DNA of 20,000 nt from an uncultured virus (IMG/VR IMGVR_UViG_3300020577_006910) (Duplodnaviria; Heunggongvirae; Uroviricota; Caudoviricetes), in IMG/VR virus record IMGVR_UViG_3300020577_006910; one strand, written 5' to 3'. The notes beneath the pieces are model-generated. The model saw only the letters and a program-made list of their open reading frames with translations. It did not search any database and was not told the origin of the DNA. Of the stretch, positions 1 to 16,068 are shown piece by piece. Both the position numbers and the translations under genes were made by a program. Numbering within the stretch: the first letter of the stretch is position 1; each line of letters begins with the position of its first letter.

Positions 1-540
1 TCTGGCAAGCAGATACTCGTCTTTTGAATCTACGCTAGCCATCAAGATGTTTCTAAATAAAACATCGCACTTTTTCCAGGTATGCGTGTAACCAGTGTAC
101 CCCGCTGATTTTTTAGTCAGCGTATCCCACAAGTCATATGGAACAGCTGTTGGCTCTCCGTAGCTGCCGACACGTAAATACCTGCCATCTAACCAAGAAA
201 AATCAACTAATTTTGAATATTTACCTTTTTTAAATGTTTTGTATATATTGAGCGGAGCTTGCCCTATGTTTACATAACAACTTCTATCTTTACCGTTACC
301 GGTGCCACGATGTCTGCAGTCTCCACACACTGAAGCATCTTGTTCAGTCTTGACTGCTTCAACTGGATTTACGTCTGATCGTAATATCCATGTTTGAATC
401 ATAGGTCCGGTTTTAGTATTAGAGGTTTTAAGCGTAGCTATACAGACAATTGGTGCGCCGTCTAATTGAGATGGTCCTTCATACAGGATCACTCCACCAG
501 AGGCGTGATTATTGTTTAATACATGAAGACTTAAAGACAT
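1..540 (-). CDS. Conserved phage Cys-rich protein, GP88/DUF7227-like (possible Fe-S/radical-SAM-like fold); 3' end runs off the window
   Basis: Not in the ORF track; translated by hand from ATG at 540, open to base 1: MSLSLHVLNNNHASGGVILYEGPSQLDGAPIVCIATLKTSNTKTGPMIQTWILRSD...SVCGDCRHR...CYV...RVGSYGEPTAVP...TGYTHTW...MASVD. The SNxKTG, CGDC, CY and GYTH motifs match my recollection of this phage family. Confidence 0.65.
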   Translation of the reverse strand, partial: MSLSLHVLNNNHASGGVILYEGPSQLDGAPIVCIATLKTSNTKTGPMIQTWILRSDVNPVEAVKTEQDASVCGDCRHRGTGNGKDRSCYVNIGQAPLNIYKTFKKGKYSKLVDFSWLDGRYLRVGSYGEPTAVPYDLWDTLTKKSAGYTGYTHTWKKCDVLFRNILMASVDSKDEYLLAR

Positions 541-577: not shown

Positions 578-2728
578 TTACAAAGAAATTACATAAGGAG
601 CATATGTTTTTAATTTATCTTCATGCGTGACTACGAGCATCTGAATATTTTTAGATGTAGTGTATGTCTGTAAATTTGTAAATAGGTCTGCTACTCTATC
701 AAGATGATCGCTGTCCAATCCGTAGGTAGGCTCATCCAGCGCTATAAAACCTACAGACTGATTAAACAAACTACTTACTGTAAGTAAAAACGATAGAGCT
801 AAGCAGCAACGCTGTCCACCACTTAACTGTTCAGTTATGGCTGATTGATTATTTGAAAATTTAACTTGAATAGTAGAATCAGCTAATAATTCAACTGTAA
901 ACGGTACGTCGAGTTGAGATAGCAGCTGATTCCAGCTGGCATTAAGTCTAGAAAAATATACGCTTGCTAAAGCTTGAGGAAGTTTGGTAGGGTGTAAAGC
1001 TTGCTTGATTTGCTCCAAACAACCGCAATAACTTTCAATTACATTGCGTTGTTTAAGTGTTTTATGTAGCGTCTCTAATCTTGCATTAATTGACGGTAAT
1101 AGTTTTTGCTCTAAAGCATTTAACTCTGCCTCTGCAAGACTTAATTGTTTTATCTCAGCCCTACAAACAGCCAACTCTGTTTCTAACTTAATTAAGTTAG
1201 TTTGACTTAGTTTTGTTTCTTTTTGAATTAAGCCAGATAAATGTGTTGTAATGTGTTCTATAGCTGCGTTTGTAGCAGATAGTTCTTTGTCTAAAGTATT
1301 TAAATTATTTAATAGCTCATCTACATTTTGCAGTTGTTTATCTAAATAAGCAAGTTTGTCTTGAATAACAGCTATTTCATTATTTAATTGCGTTTCGTCT
1401 AAATCCTTAAACGCAGCTAATTGCGCATCTAGTCCATCTAGCTTTTGCTTTAAACCGATCTCTTGCGTCAGCAGACTTACAAGCTTTGTGTAGTATTCGT
1501 AGATTTTTGTCGTGTTATTGACAGCTTGCGTATAAGTGTTTACGGCAAAAGTTGCCTTTTCTACTAAGTCAGATAAGTGTAAATGTTCTGTACCTTTAAT
1601 TACTGTATCTGTACCGCAAGTTGGACAGACGCCATCTTTAAAGCTAGTCAGTTTTGCCTGCTCTATAGATAAATTTAAAGCAGCTTCTTGTTTTACTTTT
1701 AGCGCTTCAGCTTGTTTAGCGGTAGCTTCGCTGTACGTTATGTACGAACCGTGCACAGCTACAATTTCAGAATGCTTAGCAGTACACTCGGTAACAGCTT
1801 CTGAGCGTCTAGTTAGCAGTTCTTTTTGCTTAGCTATTTGAGTTAATTTTTGTCTACACGTAGATAAAGCTACGGACTCAGCTATTTTTTCCTTAGCCAA
1901 GTGTTCTCTAGTTAAACAGTTTGATACGTTTTCAGCTACAGCAGATTTTTGCAAAGTTAGGTTGTTTAATTTAGTCTGCAGAGTTTCAGCTGTTTTAAGT
2001 GACGCAGATAGCCCTGTTGCCGGATTATTTAGATCGGCAGCTATACTGTGGCATGTAATTACTATTTGTTGCAGACTTGTCTCAGTGGAGCGTAATACAT
2101 CTAAAGAATGCCCCTTAAGTTCAGCGTTTAGTACATCTACGCGTTTAACTGCGTCAGAGTGTTCAGCTGTTAACTTCGAGAGATCCTCTAGTACCATACC
2201 ATTTAACTTACCGGTATAAAAATTTAATTCTGTTGTAGCTAAAGCATATATAGCTTGAAATCTATCGGTACCAAGTAATTTATGTAACATAACATTACGC
2301 TCACTTGGGCGAGCGTCTAATATAGCTGTAGTATCACCTTGTTTTACAAATACAAAATTATCGGATAAATTTTTTGCGGCCCCAAGTAAATCATTTATAC
2401 AAGCGTCTATGTCACTTAACTTAGAATAAATCTGACCATCATAGTTCAATAAAGCTTTTGAACTATGTAATTGTCGGGATATGTGCCCTTTTTTACCGTT
2501 GGCCTCGAAGGTCAACTCTACCCTACCCTCATCCGCATCCCATTTTAAAGCCTCTAATTTTTTAACGTTTGGAGTTACGCCGGTCAATACAAACTGTAAA
2601 GCTTTTAATATATTAGATTTACCGGTACCGTTAGGACCTTGTATAACACACAACCCATTATCAGGAAAAGCGATTACTAAATCAGAATGAATGCCGTAAT
2701 TAACTATGTGTAGCTTTTGAAGTTTCAT
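578..2728 (-). CDS. sbcC: SbcC/Rad50/gp46-like SMC-family ATPase (recombination exonuclease subunit)
   Basis: Walker A GPNGTGKS, Q-loop FVKQG, long coiled coil with central Zn-hook CPTC, ABC signature LSGGQ, Walker B/D-loop ALDEP, H-loop VTH. Confidence 0.95.
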   Translation of the reverse strand: MKLQKLHIVNYGIHSDLVIAFPDNGLCVIQGPNGTGKSNILKALQFVLTGVTPNVKKLEALKWDADEGRVELTFEANGKKGHISRQLHSSKALLNYDGQIYSKLSDIDACINDLLGAAKNLSDNFVFVKQGDTTAILDARPSERNVMLHKLLGTDRFQAIYALATTELNFYTGKLNGMVLEDLSKLTAEHSDAVKRVDVLNAELKGHSLDVLRSTETSLQQIVITCHSIAADLNNPATGLSASLKTAETLQTKLNNLTLQKSAVAENVSNCLTREHLAKEKIAESVALSTCRQKLTQIAKQKELLTRRSEAVTECTAKHSEIVAVHGSYITYSEATAKQAEALKVKQEAALNLSIEQAKLTSFKDGVCPTCGTDTVIKGTEHLHLSDLVEKATFAVNTYTQAVNNTTKIYEYYTKLVSLLTQEIGLKQKLDGLDAQLAAFKDLDETQLNNEIAVIQDKLAYLDKQLQNVDELLNNLNTLDKELSATNAAIEHITTHLSGLIQKETKLSQTNLIKLETELAVCRAEIKQLSLAEAELNALEQKLLPSINARLETLHKTLKQRNVIESYCGCLEQIKQALHPTKLPQALASVYFSRLNASWNQLLSQLDVPFTVELLADSTIQVKFSNNQSAITEQLSGGQRCCLALSFLLTVSSLFNQSVGFIALDEPTYGLDSDHLDRVADLFTNLQTYTTSKNIQMLVVTHEDKLKTYAPYVISL

Positions 2729-2730
2729 TA

Positions 2731-3843
2731 TTACAATCCAATAGCTTTTTTATATTGTTCTAGTTGTAATTTGGGATCGTTGTTCATCATGGCTTTTAAA
2801 AAAGCTGCAGCTGCTGGATCTTTTACATAGGAATTAACCAACGTGTCGAGGCTTAAGTCTAATTTGAGTTCGGGTGTAACGTCAGGTGTTTCTGCGTCAA
2901 AAAATGAACTAAACACATGTGCTTTGTTATCTATATAAGTTTTTAATCTATCTAGAGCTTTATTAATAGAACTGGATATCTTTACACTTACAACAGGTGT
3001 AACAATATCAGGATATTTTTGTTTTTTTATCTCATCATCTATAGTAGGTGTGTTTAATTTTGCGTCTAAGTCGCTAAACATCGCCACTAGGTCTGCTTCA
3101 GTACACAAAGTATAATAATAAAAATCTCGTGTAACTAGTTTATGTTGAGTTAAACTGATCTCACCATTTACTTCATTTACAAGGTATACATATTTTTTAG
3201 ATGCCTCTTTTAGAGCTTGTACGCTTGTGCTACCGGGATACGCAAATAGCGTATTACCGTGACGTTCTTGTATATTTACGTGGTAATCACCAAGAAGCAC
3301 TGCGGGTATTTCTTTGGGTACCCAGTTAGCTTTCATATTTACCATTGCGTCAAATTTACAAAAAACATCTAAAAGTTGGTGACCTACCACTATTGTGCTA
3401 GATGGTTTGCTTAAATGAGGCAACAACTCTTTTGCGTAAAACTGCTCTAACTCTGACGGATTACCGCAAAAAGGTACGCCATACAAATAGAAATTATTTA
3501 AACGCGTTTCTTTATTCTGTATATCCAACCCACCTATTACTTTAATCCAATCGTGTTCTTTACTCTTATCATGATTACCAGGTATACCGTAAAAGTTTAA
3601 ACCATTTTTATTTAGAGCACTAACGCCTTGTTTAGCTACGTATACGCTCTCCGCATCAGGGCGAGCTGAATCAAATAAATCCCCGCCATCAACATAATTA
3701 CAATTGTGTTCTACGCATAGTTGAATAGTTTGGTCAAACGATGCATACGCATCACCAAATATAGACGCCCGAGCCGTCCATACGTGCTTTCGTAAATGTT
3801 GATCAGCTCCAAAAATAAATAATAGATTTGGTTGTTTTGGCAT
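2731..3843 (-). CDS. sbcD: SbcD/Mre11/gp47-like metallophosphoesterase nuclease
   Basis: Calcineurin-like motifs ADQH, GGDLFD, GNHD, GHQ, GDYH, YPGS; ends 2 nt upstream of the sbcC-like start. Confidence 0.93.
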   Translation of the reverse strand: MPKQPNLLFIFGADQHLRKHVWTARASIFGDAYASFDQTIQLCVEHNCNYVDGGDLFDSARPDAESVYVAKQGVSALNKNGLNFYGIPGNHDKSKEHDWIKVIGGLDIQNKETRLNNFYLYGVPFCGNPSELEQFYAKELLPHLSKPSSTIVVGHQLLDVFCKFDAMVNMKANWVPKEIPAVLLGDYHVNIQERHGNTLFAYPGSTSVQALKEASKKYVYLVNEVNGEISLTQHKLVTRDFYYYTLCTEADLVAMFSDLDAKLNTPTIDDEIKKQKYPDIVTPVVSVKISSSINKALDRLKTYIDNKAHVFSSFFDAETPDVTPELKLDLSLDTLVNSYVKDPAAAAFLKAMMNNDPKLQLEQYKKAIGL

Positions 3844-3889: not shown

Positions 3890-4189
3890 TCAGGGAGATA
3901 AGCTTGCAAAAATACGTTTCACATCTTCACGGGATAAAATAATCACGCCGTAAATCGTAAAGCTACTATTAAAAGGGTGCGTAGCTTTATTTATATTATG
4001 CATTAAAAATTTTATCATGTATGGTTTATAGTTAGTGTCAAATAATACATGAGACATATACACGCACTTAATATGGTAGGCAATAGAGGCACTAAAGCTA
4101 AAACCAAACGTTAACATAAACAAACTAGAGCTATTAATATTCATACTACCTGTTCTTAAGTAGTTAAACTTTTTAAAGCAGTAAATCAT
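3890..4189 (-). CDS. YxF-array member 22 (99 aa, MIYCFK...), hypothetical
   Basis: ATG overlaps the upstream member by 17 nt; N-terminal YCF. Confidence 0.65.
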   Translation of the reverse strand: MIYCFKKFNYLRTGSMNINSSSLFMLTFGFSFSASIAYHIKCVYMSHVLFDTNYKPYMIKFLMHNINKATHPFNSSFTIYGVIILSREDVKRIFASLSP

Positions 4190-4511
4190 TTATACGTAGC
4201 TCCGCATCTGCGTGCTCGAACTGCTTCGTAGACATAGAATTAACAAAATAAATTAAAGCGGAAGTTTTTGGTTTACGCCGTAGATTTAAAACTACGTGAC
4301 CATGGTTATTAAATACGTAATATTCGTTATCACTATGGTGCCGCATAGTACGTGGTTTGGTGCTATCTACAAATATAAAACAAAAACAAGTGCTACGCCA
4401 GAAGTAGCCTTTCATGTAGTTAACGCAATAAAACATAAAAAACGTATAATAAAAAGCAGTCTTTCCTGAATAATTGTGGCATTTAAAGACGTAACCAAAA
4501 GGTGCTTTCAT
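4173..4511 (-). CDS. YxF-array member 21 (112 aa, MKAPFGYVFK...), hypothetical
   Basis: ATGA start/stop overlap at 4508-4511; N-terminal YVF. Confidence 0.7.
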   Translation of the reverse strand: MKAPFGYVFKCHNYSGKTAFYYTFFMFYCVNYMKGYFWRSTCFCFIFVDSTKPRTMRHHSDNEYYVFNNHGHVVLNLRRKPKTSALIYFVNSMSTKQFEHADAELRINDLLL

Positions 4512-4975
4512 GTTTTTTGTAAAGAATAAATACCGTATAAGTAATATTCATATGAGACCATGTTAAGTTGAAACTCTCTATTTTTTCTAGAGTATCTCGT
4601 TCGTTGTTTATGTGTGCGATCAAGTACGGTAAGCGCCAAGAACACCTCCTCTTCTGGTACATATGCATGTTTATGTAAATTACGCAACGTCAATATAGAC
4701 AGATTGAGACTAGTGTAAATTAAATAAGTAGAACGTCCCCACATAGTGGAATGTATCGCGTGATCACCGTATTTTTTTGCTTTAATTGAAACAGTTAAAA
4801 AATCCGAAGGATCGGTTTTGTCTTTATAAAACATATAAATAAGACCGTGCAATAAATTAAATATTTTTAACTTTTGATTCGTTAACGCGGGTGTAGTATT
4901 AGGGCGTAGTTTATTCGCTAAATCGTTGTACTCGTCAGATAAAAAGGTGTAGTTTTGACGTGCCTTAGTTTTCAT
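4508..4975 (-). CDS. YxF-array member 20 (155 aa, MKTKARQNYTFL...), hypothetical
   Basis: 11-nt overlap with the upstream member; N-terminal NYTF. Confidence 0.72.
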   Translation of the reverse strand: MKTKARQNYTFLSDEYNDLANKLRPNTTPALTNQKLKIFNLLHGLIYMFYKDKTDPSDFLTVSIKAKKYGDHAIHSTMWGRSTYLIYTSLNLSILTLRNLHKHAYVPEEEVFLALTVLDRTHKQRTRYSRKNREFQLNMVSYEYYLYGIYSLQKT

Positions 4976-5267
4976 ATATAGGGAAACCTGTCGGACAATA
5001 CACCACGTTTATGCTAATTATTTGATCAAAAAACGTACATTTAACACTGTAGCTAAACACCTCCGTGTGTTTACTAATAAAAAATTGAGGTCTAAAAACA
5101 TAAAAACAATAACAACGATAAAAATGAAAAGGTCTACGTTCAACTCCAAATGCAGTAATAGGATAGTTTCCCAGTATCTGCTTTGTTGCAGAAGTAAAAA
5201 ATGTTTGTTCTTTATCAGATAAACAGAATAGATGTTTACTTAGTTTAAAAACATAGTTAATTGTCAT
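4965..5267 (-). CDS. YxF-array member 19 (100 aa, MTINYVFK...), hypothetical
   Basis: ATGA overlap at 5264-5267; N-terminal NYVF. Confidence 0.7.
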   Translation of the reverse strand: MTINYVFKLSKHLFCLSDKEQTFFTSATKQILGNYPITAFGVERRPFHFYRCYCFYVFRPQFFISKHTEVFSYSVKCTFFDQIISINVVYCPTGFPIYEN

Positions 5268-5578
5268 TTTTTTAGCGTTACTTTCAATTTACCGTGATTG
5301 CGTAGCTTTTTTTGTTTTTTTACGTATATATAGTTATTGTTGTTAATGGGCACTGGAGTAACTGCAAAATAGGAAACCATCAAATTTCTGCCAGGACGTA
5401 CACTGAACCGTCTTGTTGAGCGTCCGCCTATATGTACAAAGCAGTACATCTTGCGTGAATAAGGTGGTACATATTTAGAATCAGCGCAGCAAACAGTAAA
5501 CCAGCTAGAACGACGATGTATTCTAGTAAAATATAAAAAGCGTGAATTATCTGGTTTGAAAGAATAGTTAGTTTTTAC
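5264..5578 (-). CDS. YxF-array member 18 (~104 aa, [V]KTNYSFKPD...), probable non-canonical GTA start (track calls a shorter ORF from 5449)
   Basis: Frame is open 43 codons upstream of the ATG at 5449; ccGAGGTGcgct-GTA AAA ACT AAC TAT TCT TTC gives NYSF. The start codon is uncertain. Confidence 0.55.
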   Translation of the reverse strand, partial: VKTNYSFKPDNSRFLYFTRIHRRSSWFTVCCADSKYVPPYSRKMYCFVHIGGRSTRRFSVRPGRNLMVSYFAVTPVPINNNNYIYVKKQKKLRNHGKLKVTLKK

Positions 5579-5898
5579 AGCGCACCTCGGAATACACGAC
5601 GCAGGTTAAAAACTTTTTGTTTGGAATCGGAATACACGACGCAGGTTAAAAACTTTTTGTTTGGAATCGTGATGTCCATATACACCGCGCACTCAAAAAC
5701 TTGAACGTAAAAATCTACGAACATATAAACACAAGAATATTCAGTACGAAAACCAATCGGCAAATTAGTGCAATTAATATGAATGTCATCACTTATGCAC
5801 GAAGACATGTACATTAATGACAAATAAATAAACGAATTTGCGCGTAAAATGCTGTCTAGTTTAGGGTTAAGTTTAAATCTGCTAAAGCTGTACAGCAT
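5575..5898 (-). CDS. YxF-array member 17 (107 aa, MLYSFSRF...), C-terminus altered by a 40-bp duplication
   Basis: Start re-called to ATG 5898, 2 nt after the upstream stop (track start 5934); N-terminal YSF. Confidence 0.65.
   Translation of the reverse strand: MLYSFSRFKLNPKLDSILRANSFIYLSLMYMSSCISDDIHINCTNLPIGFRTEYSCVYMFVDFYVQVFECAVYMDITIPNKKFLTCVVYSDSKQKVFNLRRVFRGAL
5587..5669. repeat. Perfect 40-bp tandem duplication (2 copies plus 3-nt TCG terminal microhomology)
   Basis: tcggaatacacgacgcaggttaaaaactttttgtttggaa at 5587-5626 and 5627-5666, followed by tcg. Confidence 0.97.
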
Positions 5899-5900
5899 AG

Positions 5901-6326
5901 TTAACACACAGGATACTGTAATAGCGGTGGACATTCTACGCTACCAATATTTATGGGCATAGTTGATTTATCAAGAGGTAAACTTACCCAACTGTACGCC
6001 GTAATATCTATAACAAGTTTGTGTGCGTATGGTGTATACGTAAACTTATATTTTGTGTTATTGCGTAACCTAAACACGATAAACTCAACACGATCTCTAC
6101 CGTAAGTTGCCTGTAACATAAAAGCAACGCTTATTACCACAAAGTAATCAGCACGTTTTCCAGTTTTTTTCTGTAAATATTTTAACGTATACCAAGCTAC
6201 ACAATAAGGATTATAGACGTTCACTTGACGTAAAGGGAACAGCTTATCAGCAGTTGTTGTTTTTAAAACACTAAACGATCTGTAGTTAAATAAATAGCGC
6301 ACTTTTGAATTGTTAGCTATCAGCAT
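5901..6326 (-). CDS. YxF-array member 16 (141 aa, MLIANNSKVRYLFN...), hypothetical
   Basis: 14-nt overlap with the upstream member; N-terminal YLF. Confidence 0.72.
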   Translation of the reverse strand: MLIANNSKVRYLFNYRSFSVLKTTTADKLFPLRQVNVYNPYCVAWYTLKYLQKKTGKRADYFVVISVAFMLQATYGRDRVEFIVFRLRNNTKYKFTYTPYAHKLVIDITAYSWVSLPLDKSTMPINIGSVECPPLLQYPVC

Positions 6327-6624
6327 CGGTTTTAATTAAAACGTTTTTCTGAGGTTTTAAATACCAGCTAGATAACAACATAAGACCGTAAAGTTGTGGT
6401 TTTGTATACGTGCAGCTGTAACATTTATTATCGACAGCTTTGATTGTAAATATACAAAAATTAAATAACATATAAATTGCAGGGCAATTAGTATAAACGT
6501 TTATAGCCAATTTGCTTAAATCACGTTTATTAAAAACTTTTTGTGATAATGCATATAATGAAGATGAAAAATTTACAACATCAACAGGCGAGTAATAAGT
6601 AAATCCAAAAGCGTATCGGACTAT
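6313..6624 (-). CDS. YxF-array member 15 (~103 aa, [I]VRYAFGF...), probable ATA start (track calls a shorter ORF from 6510)
   Basis: AGGAG-tcacagt-ATA GTC CGA TAC GCT TTT; in frame with the track ORF; no ATG/GTG/TTG between the upstream TAG TAG and the motif. Confidence 0.6.
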   Translation of the reverse strand: MVRYAFGFTYYSPVDVVNFSSSLYALSQKVFNKRDLSKLAINVYTNCPAIYMLFNFCIFTIKAVDNKCYSCTYTKPQLYGLMLLSSWYLKPQKNVLIKTDADS

Positions 6625-6668
6625 ACTGTGACTCCTGTTCCTTAGTAAACACAGCTACTACAAGCAAA

Positions 6669-7031
6669 CTAACAAAAGTCCGGCAAAAAATAATGACTAA
6701 ACCTATAAGAAGCAACACCTACGATAGATATAAACCCGGTTACGTTATCAAGATCAATACAAAAAGACCACGTGTTTTTTCCTATTTTTAAATTATCTAA
6801 AGGCGTGTGTGGAGTTTTTAGCGGCAAGCTTTTATATATGTACATACGCGAATTAAGTAGACTGATGTTAATAGCCGTATAATGCCTATTACAAGTCCAC
6901 CCAATAAAAGGCGGTCTTACTTTAGGGTTTACATTAAACATGCGAAGCCAGCGTATATTACCTATTGAGACCGCACAATTTGGATCTTCAAGCTCTTTAA
7001 ACACATAACTAGATCTTTTGATGAGTTGCAT
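6669..7031 (-). CDS. YxF-array member 14 (120 aa, MQLIKRSSYVFK...), hypothetical
   Basis: Start re-called to ATG 7031, 1 nt after the upstream stop (track start 7073); N-terminal YVF. Confidence 0.68.
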   Translation of the reverse strand: MQLIKRSSYVFKELEDPNCAVSIGNIRWLRMFNVNPKVRPPFIGWTCNRHYTAINISLLNSRMYIYKSLPLKTPHTPLDNLKIGKNTWSFCIDLDNVTGFISIVGVASYRFSHYFLPDFC

Positions 7032-7032
7032 G

Positions 7033-7317
7033 TTATGTGATCCGTAAACTGGTTGACATTGCATTGAAGGCATGAACTGATGTTACTATATTCAAAGAGC
7101 TGTAGTCTAGATTGTAGTTGTTACCGGGGTAAGTGTATACATACAAATAAAAATACAAACAATGACAATGCCAAGCGGTGTAGTTAGCCCCGCCATGCCC
7201 ATTAATAACACAATTGTTTGTCCAGCGTACGTAACATTTTATCAAAGGTAGAGAATTGGTGTTATTAAAATAAATGTAATGAGGGCTAAACCCATAATAG
7301 CTTTTATTAGCTAGCAT
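7033..7317 (-). CDS. YxF-array member 13 (94 aa, MLANKSYYGFS...), hypothetical
   Basis: 7-nt overlap with the upstream member; N-terminal YGF. Confidence 0.65.
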   Translation of the reverse strand: MLANKSYYGFSPHYIYFNNTNSLPLIKCYVRWTNNCVINGHGGANYTAWHCHCLYFYLYVYTYPGNNYNLDYSSLNIVTSVHAFNAMSTSLRIT

Positions 7318-7493
7318 AGGCGATATTGATATCGATGATTATACATACGCATACGATCTAGAATGACATCAAGATAGTAATATATTAACCATAAAGGTTC
7401 CCACCTATACCATATATAGCTATACGCTACAGGATCTTTAATAAATGCATGACTAAGACTAAAACAATATTTAGGAAAACTGGAGGTTGTCAT
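7311..7493 (-). CDS. YxF-array member 12 (60 aa, MTTSSFPKYCFS...), hypothetical
   Basis: N-terminal YCF; stop overlaps the next start. Confidence 0.6.
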   Translation of the reverse strand: MTTSSFPKYCFSLSHAFIKDPVAYSYIWYRWEPLWLIYYYLDVILDRMRMYNHRYQYRLC

Positions 7494-7524
7494 TCAATGG
7501 GCAGCCAAACGTAGCTACTGAACT

Positions 7525-7854
7525 CTAGTCAAGAAACAATCTATTATTGCGGTTTGTTGAAAACTTAATGAAAGTTACAGACTCTCTGTAAGAAATTTTA
7601 ACGTAATAACTTTCAAGCGTACATAAGTTTAAAGTCATACACCAATCTGGAAAAGTTGGAGGACTACTGTGATTTACAATATACGAACTACCTATATGAA
7701 TCATTAAAGAACTGGGACTATACCAATGGTAAATTCCGTCATACGTTAACCAATCAAAATAAGCACAAAGTAAAAGAAAACAACTTTTTTTAATAGAAGA
7801 GTCGGTGTTGATATATCGTTCTTTATAGGGGAGTGCAAAACAATAGTTAAACAA
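7525..7854 (-). CDS. YxF-array member 11 (109 aa, MFNYCFA..., TTG start), hypothetical
   Basis: GAAAGGA-tgcc-TTG; N-terminal NYCF. Confidence 0.68.
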   Translation of the reverse strand: MFNYCFALPYKERYINTDSSIKKSCFLLLCAYFDWLTYDGIYHWYSPSSLMIHIGSSYIVNHSSPPTFPDWCMTLNLCTLESYYVKISYRESVTFIKFSTNRNNRLFLD

Positions 7855-7882
7855 GGCATCCTTTCAAACGACTGAAGTTAAC

Positions 7883-8107
7883 TTACATAAAAAACATTTC
7901 TATATTAAAAACAAAATTTGGCATTAATACATAAAAATGTATAAATTCCGCAAAAACTATTATCCACACACCTGTGTAGGCACGACTACTGTTAACGGTT
8001 ACAGCAGGAGCATCCCATAGTTTTTTACACGCAAAATTAGCCACTATAACACGATAGTTATATTTACTGTACTCGTTAATCATTGAATTAAAGGTATAGT
8101 TACGCAT
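7883..8107 (-). CDS. YxF-array member 10 (74 aa, MRNYTFN...), hypothetical
   Basis: 8-nt overlap with the upstream member; N-terminal NYTF. Confidence 0.68.
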   Translation of the reverse strand: MRNYTFNSMINEYSKYNYRVIVANFACKKLWDAPAVTVNSSRAYTGVWIIVFAEFIHFYVLMPNFVFNIEMFFM

Positions 8108-8321
8108 TAGCTATTATGTACAGATGTATATCTGTGTCATAATTAAACTTAGCTAAAAAGCCTAACACAACAGGACTGTTAGACGCATAAACGGTATCAC
8201 CATAAAATTTAGCGTAATTTAAACGTTGTAACACATATAAAAAATGTAACGTAGCATCTAGTCTATTTATATGCGTAAGTACAGATGTAATGCGGTGGTT
8301 AAACAAATAGTTATTCAACAA
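8100..8321 (-). CDS. YxF-array member 9 (73 aa, MLNNYLFN..., TTG start at 8321 or 8318), hypothetical
   Basis: AAGGGAG-ctg-TTG-TTG; N-terminal NYLF. Confidence 0.68.
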   Translation of the reverse strand: MLNNYLFNHRITSVLTHINRLDATLHFLYVLQRLNYAKFYGDTVYASNSPVVLGFLAKFNYDTDIHLYIIANA

Positions 8322-8336
8322 CAGCTCCCTTGTGCT

Positions 8337-8555
8337 TTACGTAGAAAACCACCAAACATCTGGTTCGTGCGAGCTTGGTTTAAACACAACTAACTTATAA
8401 ACAGATACATAAGGATTAGCAAAAACACGTACATAATTATAGGTAGAAAATCGCGTCAAGTATAGCAACACATTAAACGGATTGTAGTAAGTATAAGCAA
8501 GATTTGCACCTGAAAGAATACGTGTGTACTTTTTGCTAAATTTGTAGGTCGGCAT
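8337..8555 (-). CDS. YxF-array member 8 (72 aa, MPTYKFS...), hypothetical
   Basis: ATG 8 nt after the upstream stop; N-terminal YKF. Confidence 0.65.
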   Translation of the reverse strand: MPTYKFSKKYTRILSGANLAYTYYNPFNVLLYLTRFSTYNYVRVFANPYVSVYKLVVFKPSSHEPDVWWFST

Positions 8556-8563
8556 ACAAAGAG

Positions 8564-8869
8564 TTAGGTAAACAGATCAACGTAATTATTATGATTAAAA
8601 CTAGTCATATAAGCTTCCACAGTCCAAAAACTAAAAAAAGGTGACTTAGAGATGTAAGTCCGATCACAGAAAAACCTACCTGTAAATAAGATGCCTGCGT
8701 TACGTACAGTTAAAAATACACAACACCGAAAGTCACAATAAGTCATAATTAAATAAAATGTAGGTGTGTACCACTCAATAGGATAGGTACGCCAAAAATC
8801 AAAATAATGAAAAGCTCCGAGCTTAGACTTAAATCTGTAATGATTACCGGGAACAGTTTTGACAGACAT
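8564..8869 (-). CDS. YxF-array member 7 (101 aa, MSVKTVPGNHYRFK...), hypothetical
   Basis: GAGGA-cac-ATG; N-terminal YRF. Confidence 0.7.
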   Translation of the reverse strand: MSVKTVPGNHYRFKSKLGAFHYFDFWRTYPIEWYTPTFYLIMTYCDFRCCVFLTVRNAGILFTGRFFCDRTYISKSPFFSFWTVEAYMTSFNHNNYVDLFT

Positions 8870-8901
8870 GTGTCCTCAGGATGGCCACGTTTAACCAAGC
8901 A

Positions 8902-9198
8902 CTAAAAGTATGGATAATGCAAAGATCCACAGTCTAACACATAATCCACGCGACCTGTCACACAATTTAGTACAGCTAAACGCCAGTTATACAATGCGCT
9001 ATAGACATTACGGTTAATTTCTATGTAGATCTTCGAATACTCTGAATGAGTAGTTATATTACTGTTATAAAAATCTACCTGTCTGCTGTGCCGTCCTGTA
9101 TAACTTAAACAAAAAGCACATTGATTAAAAACAGCTGTATCTTCATATATCGGGGTATATTTTTTATATAAAGGTATAAATGTGTAGATCCGTTTAAT
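8902..9198 (-). CDS. YxF-array member 6 (~98 aa, [I]KRIYTFIPLYKKY...DCGSLHYPYF), probable ATT start; absent from the ORF track
   Basis: Stop-free frame from 9213 to the TAG at 8904-8902 fills the apparent gap; AAAGGAc-gttatcc-ATT AAA CGG ATC TAC ACA TTT; same Y/F/C-rich composition as its neighbours. Confidence 0.6.
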   Translation of the reverse strand: MKRIYTFIPLYKKYTPIYEDTAVFNQCAFCLSYTGRHSRQVDFYNSNITTHSEYSKIYIEINRNVYSALYNWRLAVLNCVTGRVDYVLDCGSLHYPYF

Positions 9199-9224
9199 GG
9201 ATAACGTCCTTTTTTACATAAAAG

Positions 9225-9336
9225 TTAAGCATAAGAATCAAAATAGACGCCATGCTTAGACCTCGCTAAAGGCAACACGTAAAAACGCCCAAACATTAAC
9301 TTGATAAGAGTACTTAAACTCATAGCTATACCTGAT
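9225..9336 (-). pseudogene. YxF-array member 5, truncated or frameshifted ([I]RYSYEFK..., ATC start)
   Basis: AAAGGAG-tttagct-ATC AGG TAT AGC TAT GAG TTT; stops at 9258-9256 after 26 codons; an overlapping frame continues ...FGRFYVLPLARSKHGVYFDSYA to TAA 9227-9225. Confidence 0.4.
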
Positions 9337-9396
9337 AGCTAAACTCCTTTGCTGTTAGCTGTTTGCACTAAACGTGAACAATTAACACAAAGTTAT

Positions 9397-9729
9397 TTAA
9401 TTAAAATCAATGCAAACACTATGACTAAAAATAATTGTAATAAAGTTTGAATGTTTACTAGCGCGGCTAGAATTAGCACTGGTGCGGCTAATGTCAGTAA
9501 TTGATATAGTTACGTAACTTAAAAAATACGGATCTGTGGCGTAAACGTAGTAACAGTGACTTGTGTACGAATAACAAGTTGAATGACTTCTTTTAACATA
9601 AGTACAAACAGTGTACAAACCAATTAAACGATAGACATAAACTGAATTAAAAATTTTTGGTAAATGCAGTATTGAGTTAACGGGAGTAAAATTAATTAAA
9701 TTATTAGAATCAAAATTATACAAAATCAT
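9397..9729 (-). CDS. YxF-array member 4 (110 aa, MILYNFD...), hypothetical
   Basis: Start re-called to ATG 9729, a 14-nt overlap with the upstream stop (track start 9774); N-terminal YNF. Confidence 0.65.
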   Translation of the reverse strand: MILYNFDSNNLINFTPVNSILHLPKIFNSVYVYRLIGLYTVCTYVKRSHSTCYSYTSHCYYVYATDPYFLSYVTISITDISRTSANSSRASKHSNFITIIFSHSVCIDFN

Positions 9730-10012
9730 GAATCTCGTAATACGAATCTGCGTAATGTGGTTTAAAAATACCATCAGCCGTTTGATTAAAATATTGTCGG
9801 CATGTTAACGTAGCTAACCTATAAGGCTCGTGGTCTAAAAAAAATAATGGAAAACATACAAAGCTCACAAATGACATAGCCTCACTATTCCGCTGATAGC
9901 ACAAACAGTACTGATCAGTGTGCGACATAAAACGCCCTCCGGGAAGTGAACAATAGTTAGCTATAAAACAACTAGAATTACCTCTAAAAACATAAGCTTT
10001 GTTAACGCGAAT
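9716..10012 (-). CDS. YxF-array member 3 (~98 aa, [I]RVNKAYVFRG...), probable ATT start (track calls a shorter ORF from 9928)
   Basis: TAAGGAG-aagcgtc-ATT CGC GTT AAC AAA GCT TAT GTT TTT; 28 codons in frame upstream of ATG 9928. That ATG also has a GGAGG upstream, so either start is possible. Confidence 0.6.
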   Translation of the reverse strand: MRVNKAYVFRGNSSCFIANYCSLPGGRFMSHTDQYCLCYQRNSEAMSFVSFVCFPLFFLDHEPYRLATLTCRQYFNQTADGIFKPHYADSYYEIHDFV

Positions 10013-10041
10013 GACGCTTCTCCTTAGCGGGCGTTGTTTAA

Positions 10042-10449
10042 TTAGTTAAAATAGTTACAAAAGTGTTTGCTGCAACGAAGCTTAAATACGTACTCACTAT
10101 AAGGGACGTTAACCGAGCAATATCTACGTTCATTCATGTCTGAAGGCGTACGCGTAACCCAAGTCAAATTAGGTAAAGAACAAAACCTAAAAAAGTTTAC
10201 ATTTACATAAAAAAAATATTCAGCCTTACACGAACGATCATCGTGTGTAAACATAGAATAATTTACACGTACGTACAACCGTGAGAAAGCAGATATTTCA
10301 AATCCATAAGATAGACAATAAAGACTAGCTAAAGAATAAGCGCAAAATTGTTTATCTAACGCAGTAACTGATTTAACTGCAGAATACTCATGCACACGCA
10401 TAGACGTTAAAGTACATAAATTACCAAATTTAAAGCTATAAAAAATCAT
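10042..10449 (-). CDS. YxF-array member 2 (135 aa, MIFYSFKF...), hypothetical
   Basis: 14-nt overlap with the upstream member; N-terminal YSF. Confidence 0.72.
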   Translation of the reverse strand: MIFYSFKFGNLCTLTSMRVHEYSAVKSVTALDKQFCAYSLASLYCLSYGFEISAFSRLYVRVNYSMFTHDDRSCKAEYFFYVNVNFFRFCSLPNLTWVTRTPSDMNERRYCSVNVPYSEYVFKLRCSKHFCNYFN

Positions 10450-10735
10450 AGAAGTCGTACAACTCAGCTATCTCTGTGACAATAACAGCGCGTTCAGATG
10501 TACCGTAAGCAGCTTTTTTTAAAAGTACGCTTTGCATTTTTGAAAAGCAAATCGCACCAGCTCCAAAAGCCACACCACGATTAACTGAAGGTAAAACCAG
10601 TAAATTTATGTATAGGTTAGACAAAGAAGTAAAACAATAAGAATAAAGTGACATCGTATCGTCGCGATTGTTGTAAAGGGAACAATAACTGTGAGTTAAC
10701 GAAGGTTTACGTGTATAAGTGTAAACTGTAGCCAA
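10436..10735 (-). CDS. YxF-array member 1 (99 aa, MATVYTYTRK..., TTG start), hypothetical
   Basis: Strong SD AAGGGAGGT directly upstream; N-terminal YTY variant. Confidence 0.7.
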   Translation of the reverse strand: MATVYTYTRKPSLTHSYCSLYNNRDDTMSLYSYCFTSLSNLYINLLVLPSVNRGVAFGAGAICFSKMQSVLLKKAAYGTSERAVIVTEIAELYDFYDFL

Positions 10736-11135: not shown

Positions 11136-12473
11136 CTAAGTTGGTATTTGTACGGTGTGCATGCCATTAAACTCGACATAATCGTGTATGTACCATTCCA
11201 GCCAATGTGTTTTATTTCTATTGGCCAATTCTTCAAACAGCTTATAGTTTTTTACCAGATACTCTTTAAATTGCTTTAACTGCACTAATCCAGTAAATAT
11301 AAAATTATTAAAGCAAAGAACTGGATCTTCGCCAGTTGCCAGATATTTTAGTGCGTCAAGCATGGAATCTGCTTCATACAGGTTTACTACTTGCACTTTG
11401 TACATTGGGTTAGCTTCTAGGTTTTTTATGTAGCGCTGTATACGCCTTACTGTAGCCTTCTGGTTGTTTTTGGCTATGTAGGCTACAGTGACGTCTACAA
11501 ATGTTCCTGATGGATCTAATGCGGTATTAGCCGGAATACTATTAATAACTCTATATACCTCTTCACCTTTTTCGGTTAACTTGTCTACGGCTTTTCTAGT
11601 TAATTCCTTTAAAGGTTCGCGTATATTTTTTAGATACCCGTACTGAAAACGATAAGTAAAATATATAACTTTGTATTTAACGCTTGGATCAACAGGCTTT
11701 TTAACTTCTTCATCAAATACAGCGTGTATCTTTCTAATCCAGCACCATGGGCATAATTTGTAGTTATTGCATACAATTAGTCCGTGTTTACTGGTTATTT
11801 TTTTAACTATTGAGTTTTTGTTTAGCTGTAGTTCTTCTACTAAGGTGTCTTTTTTTAAATGCCATCCACCTACTTGCGGTACGCAAAACCTTGTAGAGTA
11901 CAACGCTCTTAATGCAGAGTTTAAACTATGCTGCGCTACTCTGCCGTTTGCGGTGTAGCTCTCAATAGTTTTCTTGTTTTCGATTTTTCCAGTTATGTCG
12001 GTAAAACCAACAGACATTACGGTTGGATTTATTACCCCATCGAATAATAACCCACGTAATGCAATATATTGTTTAATAGCGTTTGTTAGTGGGTCGCTGC
12101 TATAGGATTTAGTCATGTATGCGTCTAGTACAGTTAGATACGGTTTCATGCCTCTAAATAAAATTTTTTCGTAGAGTTCATCTGCCATCCAACCATAGTA
12201 CCTGTCGACTTTTGCTTTAAGTAGCAGTTCTTCTATTGAGCTGCTGTTTAACCCAAGTCGATTATGTGCTAGTTGTGGATTAAGTGTAATTACTTTGTTT
12301 TTTATGTTTAAATTATATTTAGCTAAAGACCAGTGAGCAAAACCATTTACAGGTACACGTTCTTTTGGTAGTATGTGTTTCTGTACTTGCAATAATTTTC
12401 TTTTTGATAGCGTTCCATTTATTTTTGGTAGGTCGTTTAAATTAACTGAGGTTTTTATATGTCCGTCGCTCAT
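11136..12473 (-). CDS. Hypothetical basic protein (445 aa) with C-x5-C-P-x-C Zn motif; possibly a degenerate HUH/rolling-circle Rep-like origin-binding protein
   Basis: Long Lys-rich ORF; VCNNYKLCPWCWIRK resembles the CxxRLCPxC..RR motif of Rep_1/IS91-type proteins; later VIYFTYR (motif I-like) and ALKYLAT (motif III-like); no H-U-H. The CDS is solid and the function is tentative. Confidence 0.55.
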   Translation of the reverse strand: MSDGHIKTSVNLNDLPKINGTLSKRKLLQVQKHILPKERVPVNGFAHWSLAKYNLNIKNKVITLNPQLAHNRLGLNSSSIEELLLKAKVDRYYGWMADELYEKILFRGMKPYLTVLDAYMTKSYSSDPLTNAIKQYIALRGLLFDGVINPTVMSVGFTDITGKIENKKTIESYTANGRVAQHSLNSALRALYSTRFCVPQVGGWHLKKDTLVEELQLNKNSIVKKITSKHGLIVCNNYKLCPWCWIRKIHAVFDEEVKKPVDPSVKYKVIYFTYRFQYGYLKNIREPLKELTRKAVDKLTEKGEEVYRVINSIPANTALDPSGTFVDVTVAYIAKNNQKATVRRIQRYIKNLEANPMYKVQVVNLYEADSMLDALKYLATGEDPVLCFNNFIFTGLVQLKQFKEYLVKNYKLFEELANRNKTHWLEWYIHDYVEFNGMHTVQIPT

Positions 12474-14229: not shown

Positions 14230-16068
14230 ATGGCTTCTCCTGATATAGTTAATCAATTAGTTGAATGGTCAAACTCGCAGAACACTGCAAATCCTTTGCC
14301 GTTAAACAAAGGTTTACGTTTAATATCTGATTTGTACAAGAACAAGAACTGCGATACTCTAGTACCTATTTTACCATTATTACTTAGCCTAAAAGGCAGA
14401 CCTTTTACATTAAAAGATCACATGCCCATGGAGCCTCTCTATAGGTTTAGAGATGTCCCTTTGAACACGCTAGTTAAATGCGGACGCCAGGTATCTAAGT
14501 CAACTAGTCTAGCTGCAACAAGCATAATGTTTAATGCTATTACTCCGTATTTAAATACCCTATGCGTAAATCCTTTATTTGAACAAATTCGTCGTTTCTC
14601 TAATAACTCTGTACGCCCCTTTATCGAAGAGTCACCTGTAAGAAAGTTAATCCAAGGTGAGACCGACGTAGATAACTCTGTTCTACAGCGCACGTTTTCA
14701 AACGGTTCAAATTTATTTTTTACGTTTGCTTACATAGATGCAGAGCGTGCTCGCGGTATTCCTGCAGATATTATTAAATTTGACGAAATTCAAGATATAG
14801 ACCAGGACTTTATTCCAGTTATTGTTTCGTGTTCAGACGCTTCGCAGTACGGTCTTATTCAAATGTCCGGTACGCCTAAGACGCTTGATAATCCAATTGA
14901 GATGTTTTGGCAGAAAAGCAGTCAAGCGCACTGGACAGTTCGCTGTGGATGCGGTCACTATAACATTGCTACTCTAGAGTGCGGTTTAATGGATATGTTG
15001 CAAGACCATGGATTTGCGTGCTGTAAGTGCTCTAAGTTACTTAACACACGCGAAGGATTTTTCTACCACATGTACGCTGATAGAAAAGAGATGTTTCCGG
15101 GTTACCACATACCGCAATGCGTTATGCCCATGCATTGTGAAAACGAACGTCGTTGGTATATGTTAATGGACAAAAAACGAAACTGGAAACAGTATTTATT
15201 CTTAAACGAAGTTTTAGGCGAAAGCTGTGACTCTGGTCAACGTTTAGTCACAGGAGCGCAACTCAGACGTTCGGCTAATCTACCTTGGAACTTAAATAGA
15301 GAAGAGGGTTTAGCCGCAAGACATTCAACTGACTATACTTCCGTTGTAATGGGTGTTGACTGGGGTGGCGGTGGTGCAGGTATAGTTAAAAAACGTAAAA
15401 ATAAAATTATTGTAGAAAATGGTACTCCGTCATATACCGTAATGACTGTTGTTGGGTTTAGACGCAATACGATTGAACCTGAAGTAATATACGCTGAGCG
15501 ATTAAATCCATCTTTAACACCTACAGAAGAAGCAAACTATATATGTAAAAGCTTTTTTGAGTTTAAGTGCTCTATTTTTGCGCATGATTACGGTGGCGCA
15601 GGTGCGTTACGTGAAACCATTATTCTACAAGCTAACTTACCTGAAGATGTGTTAATGCCGTGTATCTATACGCGTGCACCATCGCAACCGATTGTGCAAT
15701 ACGTACCGCCTTCACTAAACAGACCACGTCGTTACTATTCAGTAGATAAAGCAAGATCTTTATTGCTACTCTGCTCTGTTTTAAACGCCGGATTAATACG
15801 TTTTCCGAAGTGGCCAGATGTTAAGGATAACGCTGCTTGTCTTTATGAGGATTTTTTAGCTCTCATCGAAACAAAGACAGAGAATCCACGTGGATCTGAT
15901 GTATATCTGGTGGTTAAAAATCCGTCTTGGCCGGATGACTTTTGTCATTCTTTAAATTTAGCGTGCTTAGCCAGTTGGCACAGCTTACAACAATACCCTG
16001 ATCTTGCCGCTAAATTTGGTGTTTCTTATGGACCCGAAACACCTGACGTTCCTGCTAATGATGCGTAA
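14230..16068 (+). CDS. terL: Phage terminase large subunit (GpA-like ATPase plus RNase H-fold nuclease)
   Basis: Walker A-type KCGRQVSKST, RG..ADIIKFDE Walker B, SGTP coupling motif, Zn-ribbon Cys pairs (CGCGH, CCKC), NEVLGE, nuclease GVDWG and C-terminal PDDFCH. Confidence 0.9.
   Translation: MASPDIVNQLVEWSNSQNTANPLPLNKGLRLISDLYKNKNCDTLVPILPLLLSLKGRPFTLKDHMPMEPLYRFRDVPLNTLVKCGRQVSKSTSLAATSIMFNAITPYLNTLCVNPLFEQIRRFSNNSVRPFIEESPVRKLIQGETDVDNSVLQRTFSNGSNLFFTFAYIDAERARGIPADIIKFDEIQDIDQDFIPVIVSCSDASQYGLIQMSGTPKTLDNPIEMFWQKSSQAHWTVRCGCGHYNIATLECGLMDMLQDHGFACCKCSKLLNTREGFFYHMYADRKEMFPGYHIPQCVMPMHCENERRWYMLMDKKRNWKQYLFLNEVLGESCDSGQRLVTGAQLRRSANLPWNLNREEGLAARHSTDYTSVVMGVDWGGGGAGIVKKRKNKIIVENGTPSYTVMTVVGFRRNTIEPEVIYAERLNPSLTPTEEANYICKSFFEFKCSIFAHDYGGAGALRETIILQANLPEDVLMPCIYTRAPSQPIVQYVPPSLNRPRRYYSVDKARSLLLLCSVLNAGLIRFPKWPDVKDNAACLYEDFLALIETKTENPRGSDVYLVVKNPSWPDDFCHSLNLACLASWHSLQQYPDLAAKFGVSYGPETPDVPANDA

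Follow-up and report, generated by a model that had tools for sequence, protein, structure and literature searches.

Phage T4 has small, basic internal proteins (IPI, IPII and IPIII) that share an N-terminal capsid-targeting sequence (CTS) of about 10 residues, whereas their mature parts are poorly conserved or unrelated. In IPIII, the first 10 residues are sufficient to direct a protein to the head, positions 4 and 7 of the CTS decide targeting, and the protein set varies between related phages (PMC9026906). In large and jumbo phages, such as phage G and 121Q, long same-strand runs of lineage-restricted small genes were read as tandem duplications (PMC5646251). Here, we describe an array of 22 short open reading frames (ORFs) on the minus strand, at positions 3890-10735, of a 20,000-nt DNA stretch from an uncultured tailed phage (IMG/VR record IMGVR_UViG_3300020577_006910; G+C content ~36%). 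The whole stretch is called the window below. The ORFs carry the short motif Y-x-F close to their N-termini, and the parts that follow the motif are called the bodies.

Reading frames of the array

The region 3890-10735 is tiled on the minus strand by 22 open frames, namely 21 small genes and one remnant of 26 codons, in agreement with the initial annotation. When stop-to-stop ORFs of at least 50 codons are counted, 96% of the minus strand of the region is covered vs. 27% of the plus strand; in Markov shuffles of order 1 and 2 (500 each), the mean cover was 36-40% and the highest value 60%. Excluding the remnant, the members measure 60-155 aa, and 12 of the 22 have 94-112 aa. The two ATGA overlaps that had been reported between neighbours were found at 4511/4508 and 5267/5264.

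In their relative synonymous codon usage (RSCU), the frames of the array resemble the nine large genes of the window (correlation r 0.89). With the composition-only expectation subtracted, the correlation was 0.78 in frame vs. 0.26 and -0.11 in the two off-frames. Nine starts either open the array or come after a gap of at least 15 nt, and seven of these have a Shine-Dalgarno match of at least 5 nt (AAGGGAG was counted) vs. none of the 13 overlapping or abutting starts. The seven strong sites are located at a distance of 3-9 nt, and all of them precede non-ATG starts: TTG in three cases, ATT in two, and ATC and ATA in one each. The ATG starts in the array are mostly without a Shine-Dalgarno site, as in the large genes. 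Overlapping neighbours thus appear to be translationally coupled, and after gaps a fresh initiation appears to take place at a strong Shine-Dalgarno site. On the basis of these sequence features, the array is very probably a lineage-specific cluster of 21 real, translated small protein-coding genes accompanied by one 26-codon remnant.

Four apparent starts at isoleucine codons (ATT 10012, ATC 9336, ATT 9198 and ATA 6624) have a strong Shine-Dalgarno site 7-8 nt upstream; a fifth, ATT 5593, is without one. Ile-codon starts used repeatedly in one operon would be unusual, and the alternative is that these members have lost their start codon. The array may be a case of repeated AUU, AUC and AUA starts behind strong Shine-Dalgarno sites.

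In transcription order, the array opens with member 1 (10436-10735, 99 aa, with the Tyr codon of the motif starting at 10723; all positions are given in plus-strand coordinates), whose TTG start follows GGAGGT and which carries the variant motif VYTY. The ATG of member 2 (10042-10449, 135 aa; FYSF, Tyr codon at 10440) overlaps the end of member 1. Member 3 (9716-10012; AYVF, 9994) has 98 aa from ATT 10012 after TAAGGAG; its alternative form of 70 aa from ATG 9928 is without the motif, and the 70-aa form is present in a protein collection. Member 4 (9397-9729; LYNF, 9720) has two possible ATG starts, at 9729 (110 aa) and at 9774 (125 aa). The remnant, member 5 (9256-9336, 26 codons; SYEF, 9324), has an ATC start after AAGGAG, and member 6 (8902-9198, 98 aa; IYTF, 9186) has an ATT start after AAGGA. 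The open frame of the latter is 104 codons long, and a canonical start gives only 30 aa.

Members 7 (8564-8869, 101 aa; HYRF, 8839) and 8 (8337-8555, 72 aa; TYKF, 8546) are followed by member 9 (8100-8321, 73 aa; NYLF, 8309), with a TTG start after AAGGGAG, by member 10 (7883-8107, 74 aa; NYTF, 8098), with the strain variant P0013, and by member 11 (7525-7854, 109 aa; NYCF, 7845), with a TTG start after AAGGA. Next are members 12 (7311-7493, 60 aa; KYCF, 7469), 13 (7033-7317, 94 aa; YYGF, 7296) and 14 (6669-7073; SYVF, 7007; strain variant P0011), the last with 134 aa, or 120 aa from ATG 7031. Member 15 (6313-6624; RYAF, 6615) has 103 aa from an ATA start after AGGAG, or 65 aa from TTG 6510 without the motif.

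Member 16 (5901-6326, 141 aa; RYLF, 6296) has the strain variant P0008, and member 17 (5575-5934; LYSF, 5892) measures 119 aa, or 107 aa from ATG 5898. Member 18 (5264-5593; NYSF, 5566), with a net charge of +22, has 109 aa from ATT 5593; its alternative of 61 aa from ATG 5449 is without the motif. Member 19 (4965-5267, 100 aa; NYVF, 5255; variant P0005) shares an ATGA overlap with member 18, and member 21 (4173-4511, 112 aa; GYVF, 4493) shares the other with member 20 (4508-4975, 155 aa; NYTF, 4951). The array closes with member 22 (3890-4189, 99 aa; IYCF, 4183), which ends 46 nt before sbcD.

Other readings of the region were tried and rejected. There is no array of tRNA or non-coding RNA genes (0 tRNA genes and 0 Rfam matches). 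The plus strand is A-rich across the array, like the coding strands elsewhere in the window. Plus-strand genes in another genetic code were discarded, as TAA, TAG and TGA occur throughout all three plus frames and, therefore, no stop reassignment opens them; the codon-position composition showed no antisense phase. Programmed -1 frameshifting at TTTAAA was also rejected: in most cases, 2-73 nt separate the end of the upstream ORF from the motif, and a -1 shift would have no frame to start from.

The N-terminal motif and the bodies

All 22 tetrapeptides listed in the initial annotation, from VYTY to IYCF, are present on the minus strand in the order in which they had been given. The motif is in frame in all members (Y-x-F in 21 and Y-x-Y in one); each frame opens 2-28 codons upstream of it and continues for 52-147 codons, or 22 codons in the remnant at 9324. 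The Tyr stands at residue 3-11, as had been claimed, when the nearest plausible start is taken, most often at residue 4-5, the number depending on the chosen start. YxF was found at 15 of 1905 body positions (0.8%) vs. 21 of 22 N-terminal stretches. The N-terminal frequency is thus beyond chance, as had been estimated earlier (binomial P ~4e-14, with 28 positions per ORF and p ~0.2). Without hand-picked starts, YxF is present within the first 30 codons of 20 of the 36 minus-strand stop-to-stop ORFs of the window (55-180 codons), and the other listed strands, from the window and from 80 related loci, reached 12/81 and 7/38 at most.

When the members were anchored on the Tyr (column 0, 22/22), Phe was found at +2 in 21 of 22, Lys at +3 in eight (any basic residue in nine) and Asn at -1 in six. 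Basic residues are weakly enriched at -3, and columns +4 to +24 show no enriched residue except a weak Leu at +10. As a peptide, the consensus can be written [N]-Y-x-F-[K/S/N]. The corresponding DNA consensus, TAYNNNTTTAR, has 21 matches on the array's minus strand vs. 11 in the rest of the window, both strands counted, with 14.7 ± 3.8 expected overall. Of the 21 matches in the array, 19 are in the frame of the containing ORF, and 15 of these are N-terminal.

The ratio of TTT to TTC is 20:1 in the motif vs. 140:14 in the bodies and is therefore uninformative either way; for TAT and TAC, the ratios are 13:9 and 119:65. The initial annotation had taken synonymous variation of these codons as a sign of constraint at the protein level. 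The choice of Tyr and Phe codons equals that in the bodies and shows no extra constraint on the nucleotides; the peptide level is supported by this, by the frame lock and by retention of the motif in strains. Constraint at the nucleotide level was considered on account of AAC before the Tyr (6/6 Asn) and AGY after the Phe (5/5 Ser), and it was rejected, as codon context explains both (10:6 and 9:6 in the bodies). In strain variants, Y-x-F is unchanged in five out of five cases, and the residues just upstream are altered in three of them (N to I, K to S and R to G). A peptide is the best description of the motif, as the pattern matches are mostly in frame and the synonymous preferences are explained by codon context. 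From this, selection acting on it as a peptide seems likely.

A second, weaker element, [YF]-[STC]-x-[VLI], was found 3-22 residues past the Tyr in 10 of 21 members vs. 2.8 ± 1.5 in 2000 shuffles. About half of the members thus carry it, at a distance of 4-19 residues from the first motif. Further in-frame Y-x-F-[KNRS] sites are present at 4319, 5102, 6707 and 10092 on the minus strand, inside members 21, 19, 14 and 2, respectively; they could be due to chance or could be traces of fused former units. The site at 4319 is lost in strain variant P0015 (F67S). A limited literature search found no paper on an N-terminal YxF tag in phages. Outer-membrane porins carry a Y-x-F signal as their last three residues; a signal of this C-terminal type was rejected, the motif of the array being N-terminal.

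The bodies show no similarity to each other above controls: the best real pair scored 23.5 bits vs. 20.4-26.2 bits for the best pairs in 20 sets of shuffled bodies. The earlier statement that the members have no other alignable sequence is thus supported, the body pairs being within the shuffled range and no further conserved column being present. None of the 21 members scanned has a Pfam family above the cut-off or a PHROG family (expectation value, E, 0.01), and the possibility raised earlier that members match unrelated known families found no such match in these scans. Likewise, none of the 21 members has a match in the 80 related phage loci, where SbcC, SbcD, the ORF at 1-540 and two terL-adjacent genes do match. 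For member 20, no homologue save its own strain variant was found among 1.84 billion representatives, and the ESM Atlas gave no match of at least 0.9 for two members.

The array proteins contain 8.3% F, 9.6% Y, 3.4% C, 2.0% E and 1.4% Q, and the net charge is between 0 and +22 in all 21 members. Membrane proteins were rejected: only one of the 21 members has a 19-residue window of at least 1.6, and none exceeds its own shuffles. The bodies are candidates for genes born in place because they have the codon usage of the phage, yet a near-random composition and no relatives.

Strain variation and genomic surroundings

A strain diverged by a few percent is present in one activated-sludge run (run X6). 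Its gene calls are of unchanged length at 4508-4975, 4965-5267, 5901-6326 and 6669-7073, and its version of 7883-8107 has 76 aa vs. 74 aa. The residue differences amount to 1/155 in member 20, 8/100 in member 19, 8/141 in member 16, 15/134 in member 14 and 12/74 in member 10. Member 20 is the least changed between strains, and the contig piece around it (4434-5586) has ~3% nucleotide divergence.

In member 14, the diverged strain lacks 1 nt at 6976 and returns to the original frame within ~5 codons (CAVSI to LTPAV), which indicates that the frame itself is under selection. Outside the frameshift patch, four of the seven substitutions in the listed part of this member are at third codon positions. 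In member 13 (7033-7317), the three codon positions account for 3, 4 and 5 of the 12 listed differences and, therefore, this member appears nearly unconstrained. For comparison, listed differences at third positions were 12/12 for the ORF 1-540, sbcC and terL and 0/2 for sbcD. These codon-position counts are samples, 40 of 847 differences being listed.

The listed long flanking pieces of the diverged strain differ by 1.6-5.6% at the nucleotide level, with 0-3 gaps. Within the array, the segments 7250-7366, 8176-8371, 8436-8695 and 9216-9342 do not align at 80%, and many 1-2-nt indels lie between 7366 and 8176. In run X6, 148 other letters take the place of 7250-7366, which is the 5' end of member 13. 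The rapid diversification of the bodies proposed in the initial annotation is therefore supported, the residue differences, replaced segments and indels standing against calmer flanks. A perfect 40-nt tandem duplication (2.1 copies) is located at 5587-5666, at the junction of members 17 and 18 and within the 3' end of member 17. Run X6 has a single copy of the unit; both forms leave both ORFs open, and the C-terminal tail of member 17 differs.

Downstream of the array, on the same strand, are sbcD, encoding an SbcD-like nuclease (2731-3843; phrog_100, E 3.5e-6), and the gene of an SbcC/Rad50-like ATPase (578-2728, minus strand; Pfam SMC_N, AAA_23 and SbcC_Walker_B). As the array is co-directional with sbcD and just upstream of it, one transcription unit is suggested. 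The SbcD protein is a conserved downstream flank and is 36% identical to that of L001, the closest relative in IMG/VR. No match to it was found in phage records or JGI metagenome contigs, the word-index protein search returned only the protein itself, and neither SbcD nor the 445-aa protein described below had a match in IMG/VR; for SbcC, there were two weak phage matches only. The ORF at 1-540 (minus strand), which runs off the edge of the window, belongs to phrog_2554 (E 2e-52). Unlike every other gene of the window, it has homologues of ~50% identity in 152 very diverse phage records, including Mycobacterium, Klebsiella, Gordonia and Roseobacter phages.

The upstream flank is formed by a gene for a 445-aa protein with a CPWC motif in a CPWCW stretch (11136-12473, on the same strand as the array), for which Pfam and PHROG scans gave no family. 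In the related locus L002, a 331-aa ORF (2615-3610) with a CPWCH stretch adjoins sbcD across the array of that locus. Its likeness to the 445-aa protein is by eye only, and BLAST gave no match between the two at E 0.01. In the 400-nt gap upstream of the array, the segment 11017-11101 holds a 23-nt direct repeat with a spacing of 30 nt and 96% identity and a second short repeat, an 18-nt tandem in two copies. These short direct repeats may be regulatory sites.

The far boundary of the variable interval is the large terminase gene, terL (14230-16068, plus strand; Pfam GpA_ATPase). Its best match among phage records is Salmonella phage Arash, with 25.5% identity, and it has many metagenomic relatives with 40-57% identity. 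Some of the latter are on contigs of 119-220 kb and, therefore, the lineage is one of large phages. At the DNA level, megablast found no match to the window among 50,697 phage records. Near-identical DNA is present in wastewater libraries, and parts of the window are contained in river and activated-sludge metagenomes; runs with a low share were disregarded as to habitat.

The distance between sbcD and terL is 0.6-8.9 kb across eight related loci with both genes and 10.4 kb in the window. In L001 (terminase 53% identical), sbcC and sbcD are followed by eight ordinary small genes and terL, with an interval of 3.2 kb. In L002 (terminase 53%), the interval of 7.8 kb holds ~20 minus-strand small genes of normal composition, none with a Y-x-F start. 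Three adjacent small genes of this locus (5222-6084, minus strand) are paralogues that share WHT[VM][KR].KN...DR.[FL]G and IY[FS].V.[DN]P. The motif density of 21 per 7 kb in the window is three times the next highest among the 80 loci (7). No syntenic Y-x-F array beside sbcD was found among the related loci, one of which has a different small-gene array. As the intervals of the relatives are variable and without the motif, the array is best seen as a lineage-specific filling of a hyperplastic interval.

Explanations of the shared motif and comparison with known systems

In the explanation that we favour, the peptide would be a short, strand-like address tag by which all members dock to a single shared partner, with the bodies free to change, be replaced or be lost while the tag stays. 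A docking tag is preferred because the motif is at the extreme N-terminus, is the sole conserved part across dissimilar bodies and survives while its neighbours change. By analogy with known tags, such a role is plausible, though we would stop short of calling it probable. The likeliest partner would be the assembling phage head, and the members would then be packaged and ejected internal proteins after the model of the T4 CTS; that the head in particular is the partner is, again by analogy, unlikely. It is more doubtful still that the array is a standing library of quasi-random, rapidly replaced polypeptides with a common address peptide, serving as a nursery for anti-host or anti-defence proteins. 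If that were true, any new body would at once be delivered to the same place, e.g., the head and then the next host.

Should the tripeptide serve as an address tag, a minimal and portable signal would be enough to load any protein onto a structure or partner of the phage, as a counterpart of the T4 CTS in an uncultured and unrelated phage lineage. It would also be visible here, within one locus, how phages generate and turn over new small proteins. Of the tagged effector library proposed in the initial annotation, the short N-terminal peptide on dissimilar, fast-changing real genes is upheld; no partner, processing site or family match was found.

A number of observations weigh against the docking tag and the genes that would carry it. 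Neither a partner nor a gene for a prohead protease or scaffold could be recognised in the window, and, unlike in the T4 CTS, no conserved cleavage-like position follows the motif. The array is co-directional with sbcCD and beside it, which suits early or middle rather than head genes. The protein composition is close to a random translation of the array's own base composition (ratio ~1 for Cys and Arg). The large genes have an excess of Ala, Asp and Glu and a deficit of Arg and Cys; the array bodies are without the enrichment in Asp, Glu and Ala. Hydrophobic residues are not clustered in the bodies, and one member lies within the shuffled range of a protein language model. AlphaFold2 gave a predicted local distance difference test score (pLDDT) of 44.5 for member 20 alone and of 51.7 for member 19 with all 21 members as the alignment. 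Moreover, five members reach the motif only via ATT, ATC or ATA starts. Runs X3 and X5 share a 4-nt deletion at 8486, a slippage in a TACT repeat, which leaves member 8 with 31 aa only; as this occurs in two natural populations, member 8 is dispensable in nature. RNA-labelled wastewater runs contain the entire window as even-depth contigs, which are not evidence of transcription. Finally, the pattern of the second element was defined after viewing the data and is a lead only.

In the main rival reading, the members would be old tandem paralogues of one small, probably beta-rich, domain, with Y-x-F-K and [YF]-[STC]-x-[VLI] as the last remnant of its first strand or hairpin and not a separable tag. 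We consider this possible, if somewhat unlikely. Descent from one domain agrees with a tandem array on one strand whose lengths peak near 100 aa, with proteins rich in the strand-favouring Y, F and C and poor in the helix formers E, Q, A and L, and with the excess of the second element over shuffles. The residues at +3 (K, N, S as AGY and R as AGA) are one base change apart, as descent predicts, and L002 has its three clear small-gene paralogues in the corresponding interval. However, no body pair exceeds the shuffled controls and no further column is conserved, and AlphaFold2 gave no confident fold even with all 21 members aligned, although this argument is weak. It would also be unusual for a core element to start as early as residue 3-5, the lengths vary from 60 to 155 aa, and the pattern of the second element is post hoc.

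A nursery of weakly constrained or decaying ORFs, with frames that stay open, low-level translation and mostly functionless products, in which the motif was copied from the 5' end of a founder, is decidedly improbable. It would account for the near-random composition and the language-model result, for the even spread of substitutions over codon positions in member 13, and for the five members without a canonical start before the motif. The truncated allele of member 8 in two runs, the 26-codon remnant and the segments replaced in the diverged strain point the same way. Against it, codon usage in frame is that of the real genes of the phage, and strong Shine-Dalgarno sites are present exactly where de novo initiation is needed. 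The frameshift of member 14 is compensated, and member 20 differs at a single residue despite the ~3% nucleotide divergence of its piece. A motif of three residues, moreover, would not outlast total divergence of the bodies unselected.

Still less probable is a role of the motif in translation, in which the Y-x-F-K codons or nascent residues would set the efficiency of initiation or early elongation of these mostly coupled genes. The motif is indeed frame-locked, A/U-rich and within the first 3-11 codons, and it lies 9-18 nt past the upstream stop at eight junctions (8564/8546, 7311/7296, 6313/6296, 5901/5892, 5575/5566, 5264/5255, 4965/4951 and 4508/4493). However, the N-termini of the nine large genes of the window are without it, other A/U-rich codons would serve as well, and the specificity for Tyr and Phe is left unexplained. 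The distance from start to motif varies, and members with their own Shine-Dalgarno site carry the motif equally.

That the motif is a nucleotide signal, TAYNNNTTTAR, such as part of a promoter, an operator, a site of RNA processing or a linker at which cassettes recombine, is most improbable: the matches are concentrated on the minus strand of the array at gene junctions, with A after TTT in 17 of 21 (P 5e-6) and C before TAY in 10 of 22 vs. 16% in the bodies, but nearly all of them are in the ORF frame, all 22 N-terminal sites are in frame with a long downstream ORF, the synonymous-site preferences vanish against a codon-context null, promoter-like (26 vs. 32.5) and terminator-like (4 vs. 4.5) sites are no more frequent than in shuffles, there is no Rfam or tRNA match, and homologous recombination would need a longer and less degenerate sequence.

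A library of precursors of ribosomally synthesised and post-translationally modified peptides (RiPPs), which has a long conserved leader, a variable core and a modifying enzyme nearby, was rejected as well: only 3-4 residues are conserved, and no modifying-enzyme family is present among the nine large proteins of the window.

The initial annotation knew of no described phage system with this architecture, which is too strong, as the T4 internal proteins (PMC9026906) and the tandem arrays of large phages (PMC5646251) are close analogues. As in the T4 internal proteins, the array has an extreme N-terminal peptide (22/22, one of them YxY) on dissimilar small basic bodies with a charge of 0 to +22, the Tyr standing mostly at residue 3-5 and the Phe two residues later. 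Positions 4 and 7 of the T4 CTS are Tyr and Phe. The spacing in the array is Y-x-F and not that of positions 4 and 7, and none of its 21 members has a PHROG or Pfam match. Unlike the T4 proteins, the array shows no protease-site column past the tag, although this test is weak, and it consists of 22 members in one run.

The hyperplastic regions of T4-type phages contain PeSLs, nucleotide cassettes of promoter plus stem-loop between genes. The array resembles these regions in being a variable interval between conserved genes (sbcD-terL 0.6-10.4 kb) with small ORFs of fast turnover. It differs from the PeSL cassettes in that its shared element lies within the ORFs, in their reading frame, with promoter- and terminator-like sites at or below the shuffle mean. 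In SPN3US and the phiKZ group, many head-packaged proteins have propeptides processed by a prohead protease (PMC5694885). These ejection and inner-body proteins of giant phages are larger and were found by mass spectrometry, whereas the array has neither homology to them nor a protease site.

The arrays of phage G and 121Q are close in layout, being, like the one described here, same-strand tandem runs limited to one lineage. In known arrays of this kind, the members are visibly similar over their full length or have a core helix or a C-terminal motif in common, whereas the members of the present array share only an N-terminal tripeptide, followed by K, S or N. Lineage-specific arrays of large phages were already known; what differs here is an N-terminal tripeptide as the shared element, on bodies that are near-random and not recognisably related, together with several apparent AUU, AUC and AUA starts.

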